From positions 1-24,829 of the IMG/VR virus record IMGVR_UViG_3300027772_001322: a stretch of 24,829 nucleotides of DNA; one strand, written 5' to 3'. This document shows, piece after piece, positions 3,284 to 20,254 of this stretch (position 1 is its first letter; every line of letters begins with the position of its first letter). Source of the stretch: a virus. Lineage: Duplodnaviria; Caudoviricetes. The notes beneath the pieces are model-generated. The model made no database searches. It worked only from the letters and a program-made list of their open reading frames with translations, and had not been told where the DNA came from. The translations under genes and the position numbers were made by a program.

Positions 3284-5191
3284 TTACTTTTTCTCTGCAG
3301 GGTCAACTTCTGTGAAGCTAGCATCTACAGTTTGTTCAGTCGCTGGCGTTGCTTGGGCAGTTGCTTGAGCACTTTCGGCGGCTTGTTTCTTAGCCATAAC
3401 TGGTCCTGCGGCTTCGAAGAATGTTTCAACTGATTTTTGAACAGCATCCTTATCTTCTCCGGCACAGGCTTCCTCTACAGCTTTAACTGATTCGTCAAAC
3501 TTTGTGCGTTCTTCTTCAGTCAATTGATCTTTGTACGTATCGTAATCTTTCTTAATGCTGTGGGTTGTTGCTTCAGCATTGTTACGTGCATCAATCAATT
3601 CTTTTGCCTTCTTGTCTGATTCAGCATTTTCTTCAGCTTCACGGACCATGCGTTGGATCTCAGCTTCGGTCAATCCGCTATCAGATTTGATAGTAATCTT
3701 ATTTTCTTTGCCAGTGTTTTTATCCTTGGCACTTACATTAAGAATACCGTTGGCATCAATGTCTAAGGTAACTTCAATTTGTGGGGTACCACGCATTGCT
3801 GGAGCAATACCTTCTAAATTGAACTCGCCTAACAGTTTGTTAAATCTAAACAAGTCACGTTCGCCTTGCGCAACTTTAATAGTTACAGCTGGTTGATTAT
3901 CATCAGCAGTACTGAATGTTTGACTGTGTTTAGTTGGAATAGTTGTGTTCTTGGCAATCAGCTTGGTAAACACTCCGCCCATTGTTTCAATACCTAGTGT
4001 CAATGGAGTAACGTCCAACAACAACACGTCTGTCTTGTCGCCAGATAATACCGCACCTTGAATGGCAGCACCTGCGGCCACTGCTTCGTCTGGGTTGACG
4101 TCTTTACGTGGGGCCTTGCCAAACAGTTTCTCAACTGCTTCTTGTACTTTAGGCATACGTGTTTGTCCACCAACAAGAATAACTTCGTCGATGTCTGCGG
4201 CTGTAACTTTGGCATCGGACATTGCAATCTTACATGGCTCAATACTACGCTCGATTAGTTTTTCAACCATTTGTTCAAACTTAGTACGACTAATGGTTAC
4301 ATTCAAGTGTTTAGGACCACTTGCATCAGCTGTAACATATGGCAAGTTAACTGTGGTTTGAGCTGTGCTAGATAACTCAATCTTGGCTTTTTCAGCTGAG
4401 TCTTTCAAACGCTGTAAGGCAAGCATATCTTGTTTCAAGTCAATGCCGTTTTCTTTCTTAAACTCATCAACTAGATAATCCATAAGAGCCTGGTCAAAGT
4501 CTTCACCGCCAAGGAATGTATCGCCGTTTGTTGACAACACTTCAATTTGCTTGTCGCCGTCCACATTGGCAATTTCAATTATGGAGATATCAAATGTGCC
4601 GCCGCCCAAGTCGTATACCGCAATCTTGCGATCTCTCTTGTCTTGTTTGTCTACACCGTATGCCAGTGCGGCCGCTGTTGGCTCGTTGATAATACGCAAT
4701 ACTTCTAAACCTGCAATCTTACCTGCATCTTTGGTTGCTTGGCGTTGGCTGTCATTGAAGTAAGCTGGAACTGTAATAACCGCTTGAGTTACTGTTGTGC
4801 CCAGATAGTCTTCAGCAGTCTTTTTCATTTTTCTAAGTACTTCAGCTGACACCTGTTGTGGTGCTAGTTTTTCTCCATTTGCTTCAATCCATGCATCACC
4901 ATTGTCTGCTTGGACAATAGCGTATGGCATCAAGTCAATGTCTTTTTGTACTTCTTTCTCGTCAAACTTACGTCCAATAAGACGCTTGCTGGCGTAGATA
5001 GTATTCTTTGGATTTGTGACTGCTTGTCGTTTTGCTGTTGCGCCTACCAGTACTTCTTTGTCTGTATACGCAATGATTGATGGTGTTGTTCTAGCACCTT
5101 CGCTGTTTTCAATTACTTTGGCAATTCCGTTTTCTAGGATTGCCACACAGCTATTTGTTGTACCTAAATCGATACCGATGATTTTGCTCAT
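3284..5191 (-). CDS. dnaK: Chaperone DnaK (Hsp70)
   Basis: [47 protein letters not shown] motifs. Start ATG 5191 (MSKIIG) behind AAAGGAGA. Confidence 0.98.
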
Positions 5192-5245
5192 AATTTTCTC
5201 CTTTAAATTAAGCAAGAATATGTAAAACCCTTACGGCGTTTTACA
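5189..5245 (-). promoter_or_regulatory. dnaK 5' leader: tetraloop hairpin plus ROSE-like RNA thermometer
   Basis: TGTAAAAC-G-CC-GTAA-GG-GTTTTACA hairpin, then TTCTTGCTTAATTTAAAGGAGAAAATTATG, near-identical to the hsp20 leader. Confidence 0.8.
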
Positions 5246-6133: not shown

Positions 6134-6162
6134 ATTATAACAGACTTAGATTGTGATGTCAA
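6134..6162 (-). promoter_or_regulatory. Consensus sigma70 promoter, probably leaderless transcript
   Basis: TTGACA(6162-6157)-17 nt-TATAAT(6139-6134); ATG 6 nt later with no SD. Confidence 0.85.
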
Positions 6163-6392
6163 TACATTTTCTTAGGTAATTGCTGATCTCTGAGCTTCTT
6201 TTTCCAACGTGCTTTGGCGGCACCTTTTTTACGTTTGCGCTCTGTAGTTGGTTTTTCGTAAAATTCTTTGGCACGTAAGTCGTCCAAAAGACCTGAGTCT
6301 TCAATTTTACGTTTAAATCGTCGCAAGGCTTGGTTGATGTTTTCACCGTCTTTGACAGTTACACCAGTTCCCTTACTCTTCTTGTACATCAT
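6159..6392 (-). CDS. rpsU: Ribosomal protein bS21
   Basis: [19 protein letters not shown]...[14 protein letters not shown] signature. Start is 6392 or 6389 (GAGG upstream). Confidence 0.93.
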
Positions 6393-6789
6393 CGTCTTCA
6401 TCCTCTTCGTAGTTTTTAATTTGGTTCACAATCCAGTCTAAATTATATATGCGATTTTTACTTATCAGATTAAATGGAGTGGTATCATCTTTAGTGATAT
6501 AGTGTGTATTGGCTTGTGCTAATAAAAACGTAGAAAACTGTTTGGTGATTGGATCGCAATTATCGATATCCAAAATGATAACTTCTACTTGGTGAGCAAT
6601 GCTCAACATCCAGCCAATATCGTGATCTTCGTTATCAAACACAAAAACGTTGATGTCATCAATGCTTTGACTTAGAATTGTTTGGAATTGTTCTTTAACA
6701 TAGTTGCTAGGTTTAACTAGCAAATAACTTAAATTCATATTAAACAATTTGTCTGGTGGCGTAATTAAGGTTATTTTTCCTAAATTCAT
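6373..6789 (-). CDS. Hypothetical protein
   Basis: 138-aa ORF tiling between neighbours; acidic tail overlaps the bS21 start. Confidence 0.8.
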
Positions 6790-6905
6790 ATAGTATTCTT
6801 TTTAATTTTTGTCCAAAGCGAATTGTTTGATTGTTCTGCATTTTGAACATAGCCTATCTGCTCTTCACTTGTATGTGACCCGTAGGGTCCTTGATCATAT
6901 AAGTC
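6786..6905 (-). other. Putative -1 frameshift extension (39 aa) of the 6854-8164 protein
   Basis: The -1 frame after A_AAA_AAG reads [39 protein letters not shown]; its TGA (6788-6786) overlaps the next ATG. Confidence 0.6.
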
Positions 6906-8164
6906 TTTTTTTTTGAATCTTCAGGTTCAATAACTTCTGTAAAATCCGGACGTATTCTGGTTTGATTATAGTAAGACACTGAATCAACCCACTGACTTCC
7001 ATTAAAAGTAAATTCCCTTGGAGTATCAAAGTCCATGCGAGTGAAGACTTGGCCTTCAACTGGATTATATGGAAACTGTGTTCCTTGATCTTTATCCAGT
7101 TCTTTTTGAAGTTCAGGAATAATTTGATACTTTCTAGCTTCTTTCTCAATTACTTCCTTTTCAACTTCTTTCTCGGCCTCTTCAATCATTTTGTTCCATT
7201 GCTCTAATGGTATATCCTCTACCATTTCTGCTGGCTTTTCCTCCGGCGCTGTTATATCACCTCCTAGTGCAGTCGACGGTGTTTCGCTTGGAACTTCTTC
7301 TGTGTGTGTTGGTGTAATTTCTTCTACTTCGTTTATGGGTTTGTCCACGCCAGCAACAGGCGTTTCTGTATGTGGTACAGTTGTGTGTAAAAGGTGTTCG
7401 TCTTCATCCTTCTTCCAACCAAAGGTCATCTGTGCGGCCAACAACATGATAACTGCTAATGGATCAAATACAATAACAATGAGAATAATAATCCATGTTA
7501 CTGCTCGTTCCAACATATTTTCATCTGCACCTTTTTCACCGTAGATGAATTTGGCAATGTATTTGATTGGACCTACTTCTGCTTCTACCTTCCTGACCTC
7601 GGCCGCGATTGGAGCCCGTTCTTGACTAACGGCAGCAATAGCTTTCTGTTCGGTTGTGATCTCAGACTGAAGCCTTGCACGTTCTTTTTGTTGACTACGT
7701 CTAATTTGAACTGCTTTCTCGGCGCCTTTTTCATCACTGCTTCTGCCCATGACTTGGTCCACAGCCTCATCCATCTGTTTAAGCGCCTTGCGGTTGGCAT
7801 CTATATTGTCCTTTGCAGTTTTAATCTTTTCGTCATAGATAGCAATCTTACTTTGAACATCACCACTAACTAGATTTTGATCGTTGTGTGCTTTGGAAAG
7901 GAATCCAAAAATACCCATCGAGGTAATAATCATTAACACAACTACTGAAATGATCATGTAGTATTTTATAAAACGTGGAGCACGTTCCCAATTGGCTTTT
8001 AACCAACTTGCACATACCAATTTACCTACTTCTAAAGCTGATCCCATTATTATAATAGGAATCACAGCCGCGGAAAATATAGCAGTTAAACCTACTACAG
8101 AATAGTAGATTGCAACTGCTGATATTATTAAACCTGTTAGAAGTAATAGCCAAGCTAAAATCAT
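6854..8164 (-). CDS. Membrane protein: 3 N-terminal TM helices, coiled coil, fourth TM, acidic tail
   Basis: Hydrophobic segments near aa 1-90 and 222-247 flank a heptad-rich region. Confidence 0.85.
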   Translation of the reverse strand: MILAWLLLLTGLIISAVAIYYSVVGLTAIFSAAVIPIIIMGSALEVGKLVCASWLKANWERAPRFIKYYMIISVVVLMIITSMGIFGFLSKAHNDQNLVSGDVQSKIAIYDEKIKTAKDNIDANRKALKQMDEAVDQVMGRSSDEKGAEKAVQIRRSQQKERARLQSEITTEQKAIAAVSQERAPIAAEVRKVEAEVGPIKYIAKFIYGEKGADENMLERAVTWIIILIVIVFDPLAVIMLLAAQMTFGWKKDEDEHLLHTTVPHTETPVAGVDKPINEVEEITPTHTEEVPSETPSTALGGDITAPEEKPAEMVEDIPLEQWNKMIEEAEKEVEKEVIEKEARKYQIIPELQKELDKDQGTQFPYNPVEGQVFTRMDFDTPREFTFNGSQWVDSVSYYNQTRIRPDFTEVIEPEDSKKKTYMIKDPTGHIQVKSR

Positions 8165-9682: not shown

Positions 9683-10009
9683 TTATACTCGAAAACTTTC
9701 GCCGCAACCGCAACGGTCACGTTCGTTTGGATTGATGAAATCAAAACCTTCATTTAGTCCATTGCGGACCCAATCCATTGTCAAGCCATTTAGATAGACT
9801 AGACTTTTGGCATCTACCAATACTACAAAATCTTTTTGAGCAAAGTTAGTTACGCCCTGTTCAGCTTCATAACTATCCACATATTCCATAGTATAGGCCA
9901 ATCCACTGCACCCAGTAGTTCTTACACCTACACGAATGCCTGCGCCTTTGCCGCGGCGCTCTAAATTTTGCTTGATTTTTTTATATGCTATGTCGGTTAC
10001 GGTAATCAT
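9683..10009 (-). CDS. iscA: A-type Fe-S carrier IscA
   Basis: RVGVRTTGCSGLAY and NPN...CGCGESF (3 conserved Cys). Confidence 0.95.
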   Translation of the reverse strand: MITVTDIAYKKIKQNLERRGKGAGIRVGVRTTGCSGLAYTMEYVDSYEAEQGVTNFAQKDFVVLVDAKSLVYLNGLTMDWVRNGLNEGFDFINPNERDRCGCGESFRV

Positions 10010-10364
10010 TCACAGCCGCTTTGATAGCATCTTCTGCCAATATACTGCAATGTATCTTTACAGGAGGTAGGGCTAGTTCTTCGGCGATGTCGGAGTTTTT
10101 GATAGACGACGCTTGATCAAGACTCATGCCTTTTACTAACTCAGTAATAAGACTACTACTAGCAATAGCACTGCCGCAACCATATGTTTTAAAACGTGCA
10201 TCAGTAATAATGCCATCTTCACCTACCTTTATTTGCAGTTTCATCACATCGCCGCAAGCAGGGGCACCAACCATACCAGTACCAATACTAGGATCACTCT
10301 TATCAAAAGATCCAACGTTCCTGGGATTTTCATAGTGGTCAATGACCTTGTCGCTGTATGCCAT
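9981..10364 (-). CDS. iscU: Fe-S scaffold IscU
   Basis: MAYSDKVIDHYENPRNVG, APACGDVM, FKTYGCGSAIASSS, LPPVKIHCS. Confidence 0.97.
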   Translation of the reverse strand: MAYSDKVIDHYENPRNVGSFDKSDPSIGTGMVGAPACGDVMKLQIKVGEDGIITDARFKTYGCGSAIASSSLITELVKGMSLDQASSIKNSDIAEELALPPVKIHCSILAEDAIKAAVNDYRNRHSI

Positions 10365-10379
10365 ATTGTATTTATGTTA

Positions 10380-10574
10380 TTATTTTGGTTCTTTTCGTGC
10401 GTTTTTAACTGCGGTAACATCGTTACGTGTGTCTTTGCACAACTTTGCCAAATCTTGACAATGTTTACGAACACGGGTGCCGGCAGCGCCAACTTCCTTG
10501 TCATAAAACTTTTCAAAGTCTGCTTCCATTGCTTCTACTATTGCTGTGAATTCTGCGTGTTTGTTTGTAGCCAT
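10380..10574 (-). CDS. Histone H1-like (Hc1 N-terminal-domain-like) small protein
   Basis: DFEKFYDKEVGAAGTRVRKHCQDLAKLCKDTR matches the recalled KF..K...AAGTR.RK pattern; AAAGGA SD. Confidence 0.72.
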   Translation of the reverse strand: MATNKHAEFTAIVEAMEADFEKFYDKEVGAAGTRVRKHCQDLAKLCKDTRNDVTAVKNARKEPK

Positions 10575-10644: not shown

Positions 10645-10956
10645 TTAATTGGCTATAACATTTGGTGATCCAGCAGTAATGGCTCCGCCGTCTGTACTAT
10701 CGCCCACTCTGGCAACTCCAATTCCGCCTACAAACACATTGCTTGATCCTGCATTGATAACAGCAGGATGGGGAATACAACTACCTCTTGGACCACCATT
10801 TATGGTGTGAGCGGCAGTTGGATTACCAACGCACTCTATAGCAATGCCATTGGCAAACACCTGAGCACCAGCACCTGTAGGGCCAGTGACTGTGGTTGTT
10901 CCATCACAACCATGACCGGTTGTGGTTGGATCTCCGTTTCGAGCAATTGCTGGCAT
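10645..10956 (-). CDS. PAAR spike-tip protein (T4 gp5.4-like)
   Basis: MPAIARNGD...GHGC, AHT, CIPH, GSSNVFVGGIGVARVGD, GSPNV repeats. Confidence 0.92.
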   Translation of the reverse strand: MPAIARNGDPTTTGHGCDGTTTVTGPTGAGAQVFANGIAIECVGNPTAAHTINGGPRGSCIPHPAVINAGSSNVFVGGIGVARVGDSTDGGAITAGSPNVIAN

Positions 10957-18215: not shown

Positions 18216-18932
18216 TCAGTTTTCACTGTAGTACTGTTCAACCCGATTCCACCATTGTTTTTCCCAATGATCAAACATGCTGTCAGTCAGTATGAATTCT
18301 TGATACGCAGGATCTCCCCAAACCAACGGCTTAATTTCTGGAGGTTTTACACACATAAACACCACGCCCTTGCGTATGTTTGTGCTATGTACTTTGTTGT
18401 GTGCTAGGGCATAAGCAACCATTTGCAAGTAGTAGTCTTCAATCCACTCTTCTTTCTTGGGTTTGTTGGTTTGCTTATGGTCCATGATGGCATCTTCGCT
18501 AAGATGTACACCCACACAGTCAGTGGTTCCTGCATATAGTCCAGGATAGTATAAAGGAACTTCTACTCCCCACACTTCGTCTACATTCTTAAGTCCGTTT
18601 TCAATAATGTGTTTGGCCATCTTGTGGCTTTGTACTGAGTATGGATTTGTGCCAGGTTCGTTGACTGTGCCTTGCACAATGTAGTCTTCTAGAAACTTGT
18701 GCATACGTGTGCCACGTCCTGCGGCTTCAGTCACAATTTCTTGTGCCTTAGCTTCGCCCACACGTTTCTTCCAGTTGGCCAAAGCCAACTTCTTTTCTAG
18801 TGGTTTAGTTTTGTCTAGTATGGTAGTAACGCTTGGAACTTTGCTACCATCTGGAGTTGCGTATAAACGCTTGCCTTCTACACTGGCTCTGTCCAGAGGT
18901 GTGTAGTCATATTTGTGTATTAAAAGGGTCAT
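18216..18932 (-). CDS. PD-(D/E)XK exonuclease
   Basis: PSVTTIL, RGTRMH, EVPLY, YAGTTDCV, IMDHKQT, QMVAY motifs. Confidence 0.9.
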   Translation of the reverse strand: MTLLIHKYDYTPLDRASVEGKRLYATPDGSKVPSVTTILDKTKPLEKKLALANWKKRVGEAKAQEIVTEAAGRGTRMHKFLEDYIVQGTVNEPGTNPYSVQSHKMAKHIIENGLKNVDEVWGVEVPLYYPGLYAGTTDCVGVHLSEDAIMDHKQTNKPKKEEWIEDYYLQMVAYALAHNKVHSTNIRKGVVFMCVKPPEIKPLVWGDPAYQEFILTDSMFDHWEKQWWNRVEQYYSEN

Positions 18933-18937
18933 GAGTA

Positions 18938-18966
18938 AGTTTACATTAACTTACTATCAATGTCAA
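18938..18966 (-). promoter_or_regulatory. sigma70 promoter, probably leaderless transcript
   Basis: TTGACA-17 nt-TAAACT; ATG 5 nt later with no SD. Confidence 0.75.
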
Positions 18967-19289
18967 GCCTTCATTGCCCTTTTTGTAGCACTTTTGGCTG
19001 CTTTGTCTACCATGTTTGGTGCTGGCTTGCCTTGTCCGGGTTGATCAACGTTCTTGTTAGTTTTAATAACTAGACCATTGCCATCAAACCTGTCCACAAG
19101 TTTTTTCATGATGGGATCACTTTCCCAACGTTTTGAGAAACGATCATAATCTATATCGGGCGAGCTGTATTGTTGACCTGCTTGATTCAGAGCTTCCCAG
19201 GTCATGGGTGCGATTACATCTTCGCTGTTTGCTCTGCTTTGTAGAGCCCTTAGTGTTAAAACCAAGGGGTCCACTGTCTCACTAATTAC
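18963..19289 (-). CDS. Hypothetical domain, probably expressed as a -1 frameshift fusion to the upstream protein
   Basis: Frame is open from the slippery site at 19289; the first candidate start is GTG 19274 with no clear SD. Confidence 0.7.
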   Translation of the reverse strand, partial: VISETVDPLVLTLRALQSRANSEDVIAPMTWEALNQAGQQYSSPDIDYDRFSKRWESDPIMKKLVDRFDGNGLVIKTNKNVDQPGQGKPAPNMVDKAAKSATKRAMKA

Positions 19290-20254
19290 TTTTTTTTTGA
19301 TTGTGCCAATAACATGCCTAATTTACGGCTGTAGTCAATGCTTTCACGTTTCATTCTGTCTTCTTCTGGCGCAGGAGGAGTCATTTCTTCTGGAGCTCCC
19401 ATTGCTTCTTCGCCTGGCATGCCTGCTGGTGCGCCCATTGCATCTGGTGATGGTGTGCCCATTGTTGGTGCCTCTCCGCCTGATACTAGTGCTAATCCGC
19501 CTTGTAATCCTTGACGACTTGCTTCTAAAGCTGTGTAAATTGCCTCTAGGGCAGGTTTCACTGCATCGCCGTATTGCTGAGCAACATCGCTGCCTAGTGT
19601 TTCTCTTATAGAGTCTTGTAATTCTAAAAGCTGTTCAGCTTTCATAGCGGCTGTGTCTTCTAACCACCCAGTGATACGATCTACCATGTCCTTGGTGGCC
19701 ATAATAACTTTGGCTTTGTCTTCTTCGCCTTCTGCTAGGTACACAATATAGTTTGCTGTGCTTTCTGCCAAATCATAACGTAGTGTTAGTTCAGCACTTA
19801 GTTCTGCTTCATCAGATTCGCCTAGGCTGATTCTGTTAATTGCATTGTTGATCCAGCTGGCTGGAACTTTGTACTGTTGAGCCTTTTGTCTAATTGATTC
19901 AGCTTGAACTTTCTTGCGCAATTCAGCTTTTTCATCGTCCATGCTTTCATCTACTTCATCACACTCACATGGATCTTTGTGGCATTCTTCGCACTTGCCT
20001 TCTTCGCGTTCCATGATTTCTTTGTTGATAACATCCAACAAAGCACGAGTCTTTTGGTATTTAGGATTGATGTGTAAGTTGTCGAAGCTTTCGTTAACTT
20101 CAAACTGGCTCATTTCTGTACGCAGTTTGTTACGCACGTCTTCCAGCTGAACATCACTAAAGTGTTCTAACTTTAATTTATAACCAAATTGACTGGCCAA
20201 GTTTTCGTTTAGTCTTTTGCTAGTTACAGGTTTTGATAATTCTCTTATTTGCAT
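19286..20254 (-). CDS. Acidic helical protein, prohead core/scaffold-like
   Basis: 322 aa, Glu-rich, many [LIV]-x-E sites, Pro/Ala/Gly-rich linker; TATAAATA at 20295-20288. Function is inferred. Confidence 0.7.
   Translation of the reverse strand: MQIRELSKPVTSKRLNENLASQFGYKLKLEHFSDVQLEDVRNKLRTEMSQFEVNESFDNLHINPKYQKTRALLDVINKEIMEREEGKCEECHKDPCECDEVDESMDDEKAELRKKVQAESIRQKAQQYKVPASWINNAINRISLGESDEAELSAELTLRYDLAESTANYIVYLAEGEEDKAKVIMATKDMVDRITGWLEDTAAMKAEQLLELQDSIRETLGSDVAQQYGDAVKPALEAIYTALEASRQGLQGGLALVSGGEAPTMGTPSPDAMGAPAGMPGEEAMGAPEEMTPPAPEEDRMKRESIDYSRKLGMLLAQSKKK

Follow-up and report, generated by a model that had tools for sequence, protein, structure and literature searches.

The ORF1-ORF2 junction

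The window, meaning the whole 24.8-kb stretch of DNA analyzed here, comes from an uncultured jumbo phage of fresh water and holds a series of genes on the minus strand. Related records extend up to 345-356 kb, and the sequencing runs with matches are from lakes or other freshwater. Two open reading frames, ORF1 and ORF2, precede an exonuclease gene whose closest cultured matches include many RaK2/GAP32/CBB-type jumbo phages, and the following features were recognized at this locus:

19286..20254, minus strand: ORF1, 322 aa, predicted all-helical; homolog of the virion proteins GAP32_293, RaK2 ORF135 and CBB gp298; several [ILV]-x-E sites
19289..19300, minus strand: putative slippage cassette TCA AAA AAA AAG, with nine A's (A9) at 19298-19290 and the ORF1 stop TAA (19288-19286) immediately after
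18963..19289, minus strand: ORF2, 108 aa counted from V-I-S-E, -1 frame; conserved start absent; predicted winged-helix-like domain plus C-terminal helix; weak homology to GAP32_294, RaK2 ORF136 and CBB gp299 (synteny, and HMM E 5e-4 to 7e-3 at Z=1000)
19278..19289, minus strand: junction peptide V-I-S-E, candidate gp21-type prohead-protease site and apparently what is left of the M-R-L-x-E leader seen in stand-alone homologs
19241..19274, minus strand: conserved, covarying RNA hairpin, starting 14 nt past the AAG codon, with a GTG buried inside
18216..18932, minus strand: exonuclease gene, a synteny marker downstream of ORF1-ORF2 in uncultured and cultured relatives

As stated in the original prediction, ORF1 ends TCA AAA AAA AAG TAA and is followed by ORF2 in the -1 frame, which reads V-I-S-E-T-V-D-P-L-V-L-T-L-R-A-L and continues over 108 codons to a stop at 18965-18963. 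Fusion of the two frames would give a protein of 430 aa by computation, for which the expected junction-spanning peptide is VISETVDPLVLTLR. The only start codons close to the beginning of ORF2 in the window are the GTG at 19274, which the prediction had named, and a nearby TTG. A sigma70-like promoter match (10/12) lies at 18938-18966 on the minus strand, at the end of ORF2 and just upstream of the exonuclease gene; with 3 such matches observed and 2.6 expected, it is at chance level.

A survey of 224 records (223 loci and the window, with the truncated locus L082 dropped) yielded 83 distinct junctions, 6 of which came solely through the junction pattern, the remaining 77 having a locus found through its proteins. 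The anticipated conservation of the lysine codons, slippery site and stop was borne out, since [T/C]CA AAA AAA AAN TAA is present in 77/77 of the latter (N being G in 66, A in 7 and C in 4), and ORF2 is in the -1 phase in 83/83. No further run of at least nine A's was found within the 433 kb surrounding 68 representative loci, where about 17 would be expected from base composition, and the junction pattern is thus far beyond chance. All nine A's are conserved, three beyond what the heptamer A_AAA_AAG needs. As a control, we looked in the body of 60 ORF1s (median identity 62%) for conserved columns in which one codon is used at a level of at least 95%; these were 0/29 four-fold, 0/6 Ser and 0/7 Lys columns, although 7/46 two-fold columns do hold one codon at 95%. 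Conservation of the A9 therefore acts at the nucleotide level.

The beginning of ORF2 has no ATG, GTG or TTG nearby in 49 of the 68 representatives, and 60 of them lack an ATG, while Glu is found at ORF2 residue 3, 4 or 7 in 68/68. Taken together, the A9, the phase, the loss of the ORF2 start and the invariant Glu make a programmed fusion of ORF1 and ORF2 very likely, ribosomal and polymerase mechanisms being counted together, and they support the proposed -1 transition that would yield both 322-aa and 430-aa forms. In a sub-clade of eight loci (L001, L004, L006, L014, L019, L020, L022 and L024), 3-4 codons of the VIQTIRES type have been inserted after the stop and ahead of the hairpin, which thereby moves to about 22 nt, with the E site retained.

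A second site and the separate-gene relatives

The same 11-mer occurs once more in the window, in a gene unrelated to ORF1:

6905..6916, minus strand: second cassette TCA AAA AAA AAG, inside a 436-aa ORF (8164-6854), with A9 at 6914-6906
6786..6905, minus strand: -1-frame extension of the 436-aa ORF, 39 aa past the three lysines here and longer in most homologs

This is the sole other A9 on the minus strand of the window, and it lies 16 codons ahead of the stop of the 436-aa gene; the TGA of the extension overlaps the ATG (6789) of the next gene. After 5 truncated and 25 duplicate sequences were removed from 81 records, the 51 distinct homologs read C-A9-G in 42 cases and T-A8-G in 4, with no run in 3 and differing sequence in 2. 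The -1 extension is conserved, its motif being in frame 0 in 5/50 distinct C-termini, and no conserved hairpin was found at this site among the 51 homologs. Across five related large records (G001-G005; 1.3 Mb), these two sites account for 9/13 runs of nine or more A's. Another run, TC-A9-C in a gene of about 546 codons (L428, G001:C1:163015-163023), is in a different register, in which slippage would shorten the product; the run may be incidental.

The ORF1-ORF2 order ahead of the exonuclease is retained in 14 outgroup loci, of which about 10 are distinct, and all of them lack the nine-A run. Their ORF2 has its own ATG, which overlaps the ORF1 stop as ATGA in 12/14, forms TAATG in one and lies 1 nt away in one; the ATGA and TAATG arrangements have the same -1 phase as the recoded junction. 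Distant ORF2 homologs are likewise stand-alone proteins with an M-R-L-F-E-type leader, the Glu of which aligns with the junction Glu. In one outgroup branch (P0156, P0166, P0171, P0190, P0265; L448:2501-3892), proteins of 134-771 aa start independently with the ORF2 domain and continue in a C-terminal extension, the domain there serving other cargo as its N-terminal module.

In cultured relatives, the two homologs are also separate genes (GAP32, RaK2, CBB and Vibrio phage 2.275.O). The pairs GAP32_293/294, RaK2 ORF135/136 and CBB gp298/299 occupy the same place before the exonuclease as the pair in the window, but the RaK2-like ORF2 starts at an ATG of its own, a 3-12-nt spacer past ORF1, the A-run is absent and most of the ORF1 homologs are shorter, at 207-215 aa (the one in Vibrio phage 2.275.O has 299 aa). 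Homology to the RaK2-like proteins is clear for ORF1 (HMM E 1e-13 to 2e-8, Z=1000) and weak for ORF2, for which it rests partly on synteny. These cultured relatives were reached via the exonuclease and synteny only, tblastn having returned none for ORF1, an outgroup ORF1 or a stand-alone ORF2, apart from one chance match for ORF2 (E 0.1). One search for ORF2 within proteins of 215-2000 aa found none, which is weak evidence; another detected ORF2-like N-terminal domains in proteins of 261-771 aa, none of which is, by position, an ORF1 fusion.

Ancestrally, the two genes were likely ATGA-coupled, with the -1 phase in place even then; the start codon of ORF2 and the greater part of its leader would have disappeared afterwards. 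We infer this order of events, with the coupled pair first and the recoded fusion second, from the broader distribution of separate genes rather than from a tree. The locus would thus illustrate a route to a recoding site in which the ATGA overlap supplies the -1 phase beforehand. It would also imply that ORF2 is mis-annotated in this clade, with arbitrary internal starts.

Run length, the downstream hairpin and the source of the predicted fusion

Run length was read from Logan contigs, not raw reads, of six RNA (metatranscriptome) runs and two DNA runs. A contig bridges the junction in five of the six RNA runs, X18 having no coverage of the site. Ten A's (A10) were found in two of these five contigs, X17 (2017; depth 15.8) and X20 (2025; depth 14.6), which carry a single extra base in the run and are otherwise identical, with the two ORFs fused in frame over 430 aa. 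The nine A's on which the original prediction was built were recovered in RNA contigs X15, X16 and X19 and in both DNA runs, X3 and X7, but not in X17 and X20. Furthermore, when metagenomes were searched with a pattern that tolerated runs of other length, 119 loci were obtained, of which 28 are unrelated and 91 belong to the family, and all 91 read C-A9-N-TAA; no run-length change was seen in 90 family contigs, L252, probably the window's own record, being left out. A10 is more frequent in RNA than in metagenome contigs (Fisher p 0.002, from samples that are not independent), a result that comes from only five RNA runs, without a reverse-transcription control and with DNA runs not known to be from the same samples. 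Reverse transcriptase is described as producing +1/-1 indels on homopolymers (PMC5737442), and stutter during reverse transcription or PCR is a possible source of the A10; in a chance model with 20% stutter and three molecules per contig, A10 in two of five has a probability of about 9%. Contigs are less deep over ORF2 than over ORF1 in the six RNA runs and also in the two DNA runs, and their depth cannot be used to rank the genes. In X3, a DNA run, the contig is also interrupted at the hairpin.

Downstream of the run, the window folds as a simple hairpin (19274-19241; -22.1 kcal/mol, z -2.7). In comparison with synonymous-codon shuffles of 68 unselected sequences, z is below -2 in 56/68, versus 8/68 for a control window. 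In 38 of the 68 sequences, picked for a shared stem register and hence biased toward structure, 86% of cells pair and double changes are shown by 28, against 0/500 shuffles. The pseudoknot proposed originally did not hold, since its two stems, CACTAA and AAGGG, share bases and the TTAGTG/CACTAA stem is found in only 2/68. The junction region gave no Rfam match. Intrinsic termination was considered and rejected, with a U-tract 40-70 nt past the stop in 0/68 and no minus-strand terminator predicted, as was an antisense terminator using the T9, for which the distance between stem and run is too large in most homologs. The hairpin is likely a guard rather than a trigger, and it would either block restart at ORF2 or shield the untranslated tail of unslipped mRNA.

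We propose that RNA polymerase likely slips on the A9 that closes ORF1, so that a share of transcripts gains one A and ordinary translation would yield the 430-aa fusion alongside the 322-aa protein; slippage would then set the ratio of the two forms. The polymerase is presumably that of the host, because no RNA-polymerase beta subunit was found in G001-G005, and PA5oct, a related phage, is described as depending on the host polymerase (PMC7318152). Bacterial polymerase is reported to slip efficiently on nine A's or T's (PMC5009743), and E. coli polymerase to do so weakly on poly(A) of up to 8 nt (PMC6260861). Shiftiness of A_AAA_AAG has been linked to the absence of tRNA-Lys(CUU), and a dedicated AAG tRNA may disfavor ribosomal shifting (PMC5009743). 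Such a tRNA is encoded in G001, G002 and G004; none was found in the scanned G003 loci, and the G005 loci held two tRNAs, neither of them Lys. The A10 in RNA, the retention of all nine A's, the lack of Shine-Dalgarno (SD)-like or well-spaced 3' stimulators and the phage tRNA-Lys(CUU) together favor slippage of RNA polymerase, which is probably the main source of the fusion. Running counter to it are, among others, the strong conservation of a 3' hairpin for which slippage has no need, the A9 carried by 3/5 RNA contigs, the reported weakness of E. coli polymerase on poly(A) and the failure to find tRNA-Lys(CUU) in the scanned G003 loci. The tRNA clusters of G001, G002 and G004 (L464-L493) are large and include both Lys anticodons, and an Ile(UAU) tRNA, unusual for bacteria, is present in G001, G002 and G003.

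The same 430-aa protein could be made if ribosomes shifted into the -1 frame on A_AAA_AAG, or on the A_AAA_AAA that overlaps it, aided by the adjacent stop and the hairpin; A10 in RNA would then be minor or a library artifact. Ribosomal 3' stimulators act at a spacer of 5-9 nt. The in-frame heptamer put forward originally is present: both sites hold the run in the sole register that places A_AAA_AAG in frame, 66/77 junctions at the first site read A_AAA_AAG and the remainder A_AAA_AAA or A_AAA_AAC, and 4/51 homologs of the second site keep A8-G alone. The covarying hairpin also lies 1-9 nt past the site in some homologs (29/56 at 9 nt or less when extended stems are counted). Its core, however, starts anywhere from 1 to 40 nt after the AAN codon and falls at 5-9 nt in just 7/56 (9/56 with extended stems), an SD-like element upstream of the run was found in 1/68, a conserved hairpin is missing at the second site, and tRNA-Lys(CUU) is present in three records. 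Frameshifting would also fail to account for the A10 of X17 and X20, RNA runs separated by eight years. As the main source of the fusion we consider it unlikely, if still a serious contender, and a ribosomal contribution alongside slippage is possible; a purely ribosomal origin is, like the pseudoknot and the scaffold label, a part of the original prediction that the data do not support.

Accounts without recoding fared worse. ORF2 might be expressed from its own weak start through reinitiation after the TAA, as in its coupled ancestors, with an incidental A-run; it is separately expressed in outgroups and cultured relatives, the window has its GTG, and some ATG, GTG or TTG lies near the beginning in 19/68. 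We nevertheless hold this to be very improbable given the absence of any start in most representatives, the conservation in the -1 frame of codons ahead of the GTG (E in 68/68), the invariance of the A9 relative to codon controls and the position of the GTG within the hairpin. Genomes could instead toggle between A9 (split) and A10 (fused) by replication slippage, to which A-runs are prone (PMC3711429), and the A10 contigs would then derive from A10 genomes, the DNA compared not being sample-matched to the RNA. This too has little to recommend it: no fused or length-variant junction was seen in the 83 viral junctions, the 90 family metagenome contigs or the two DNA runs, nor was a protein of fused length among the best 120 ORF1 homologs. 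Assemblies hide minority variants, and rare switching is possible. Homopolymers are prone to error, but a window that was wrongly sequenced or assembled can practically be dismissed, and so can pseudogene decay, as ORF2 is intact and conserved, the phase is -1 in 83/83 and the A9 recurs in DNA runs, viral junctions and family metagenome contigs.

Predicted products and known systems

The model of ORF1 is all-helical and of low confidence overall (pLDDT 72, pTM 0.33), and its Foldseek matches are uncharacterized phage proteins. ORF2 has the predicted topology H-E-H-H-E-E, which fits a winged helix; the best match of its model is modest (VIA Z 5.3, rmsd 3.1 over 69 residues) and falls on the winged helix of MCM8, tied with TFIIE-beta. 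Nucleic-acid binding by ORF2 is a guess from this model. Neither protein matched a Pfam family, and solved-structure homologs were absent from one search and reached at best E 0.04 in the other.

The scaffold-like label first given to ORF1 is not supported by gene position. In G001 and G002, the place between the protease and capsid genes, which marks the scaffold, is taken by a different gene of 364-366 aa, with ORF1 about 225 kb away, and a T4 gp22-like role was rejected on this basis. The position of a lambda G/GT-type tail chaperone was likewise rejected, as the neighbors of ORF1-ORF2 are the exonuclease and small genes, not major tail or tape-measure genes.

The protease of T4, gp21, cleaves at hydrophobic-x-E. 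A T4-type prohead protease and a major capsid protein are encoded in three of the five large related records, the gp21-type (S77) protease being that of G001, G002 and G005, and the G001 capsid protein has L-L-E-S near its N end. The suggestion that the junction I-S-E is a prohead-protease site gained from the hydrophobic-x-E match, the alignment of its E with the leader E and this related protease; the cleavage itself is a prediction. ORF2 would enter the head as a passenger on ORF1 and then be freed at V-I-S-E by the gp21-type protease, a scheme drawn from the motif, the protease gene and the leader alignment. The homologs in CBB are virion-associated, with CBB_298 (10 peptides) and CBB_299 (2 peptides) appearing in its virion mass spectrometry table (PMC5259590).

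A close likeness is to dnaX of Thermus thermophilus, where nine sense-strand A's give extra-A mRNAs and two proteins from one locus (PMC5009743, PMC1088944), about 50% of each being made through A9 slippage (PMC5009743). There, as these papers describe it, the long form comes from unslipped mRNA, whereas at the phage junction it would come from slipped mRNA; moreover, the phage junction concerns a virion gene pair, with a stop directly after the run and a 3' hairpin. Slippage fuses two ORFs, with conserved run length, in IS elements with A9 between orfA and orfB (PMC1088944) and in two-ORF dnaX genes with 9-10 A's (PMC3711429), and also in Citrobacter tssM1, in which A11 is followed by a stop and both forms are needed (PMC4256274). 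Those are cellular or mobile-element genes, while the phage has two sites per genome and a visible ATGA-coupled origin. Among phages, lambda G/GT, the T7/T3 capsid extension and head or tail proteins of A2 and PSA resemble the present case in that a fixed share of a structural or assembly protein receives a C-terminal extension, but they are described as ribosomal, belong to other gene families and have no A9 run in that account (PMC5009743).

The phage recoding examples given in the same review are ribosomal (PMC5009743), and searches of an open-access library listed no paper on transcriptional slippage as a programmed event in tailed dsDNA phages. We tentatively suggest, as an idea short of an established one, that freshwater RaK2-related jumbo phages use host-polymerase slippage on C-A9-G as a reusable stoichiometry device in at least two late genes per genome. 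At the junction, this device would act as a slippage-dosed cargo loader, in which a winged-helix protein lacking start and leader enters the head on its neighbor and is freed by the prohead protease. If true, this would represent programmed transcriptional slippage in tailed phages that is visible in wild transcriptomes and has a traceable evolutionary origin. The locus itself contributes an outgroup series that reaches cultured phages with characterized proteomes, together with the recurrence of its 11-mer at another site.

The window also carries a phage-encoded ribosomal protein bS21 (6159-6401, minus strand; Pfam E 1e-19); phages encoding bS21 have reportedly been the subject of a published study. 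Further accessory or host-like genes on the minus strand encode a ferredoxin-dependent bilin reductase, Hsp70, an IscA/IscU-like pair, a histone-H1-like Hc1 and a PAAR protein, at 1232-1912, 3284-5215, 9683-10364, 10380-10574 and 10645-10956.
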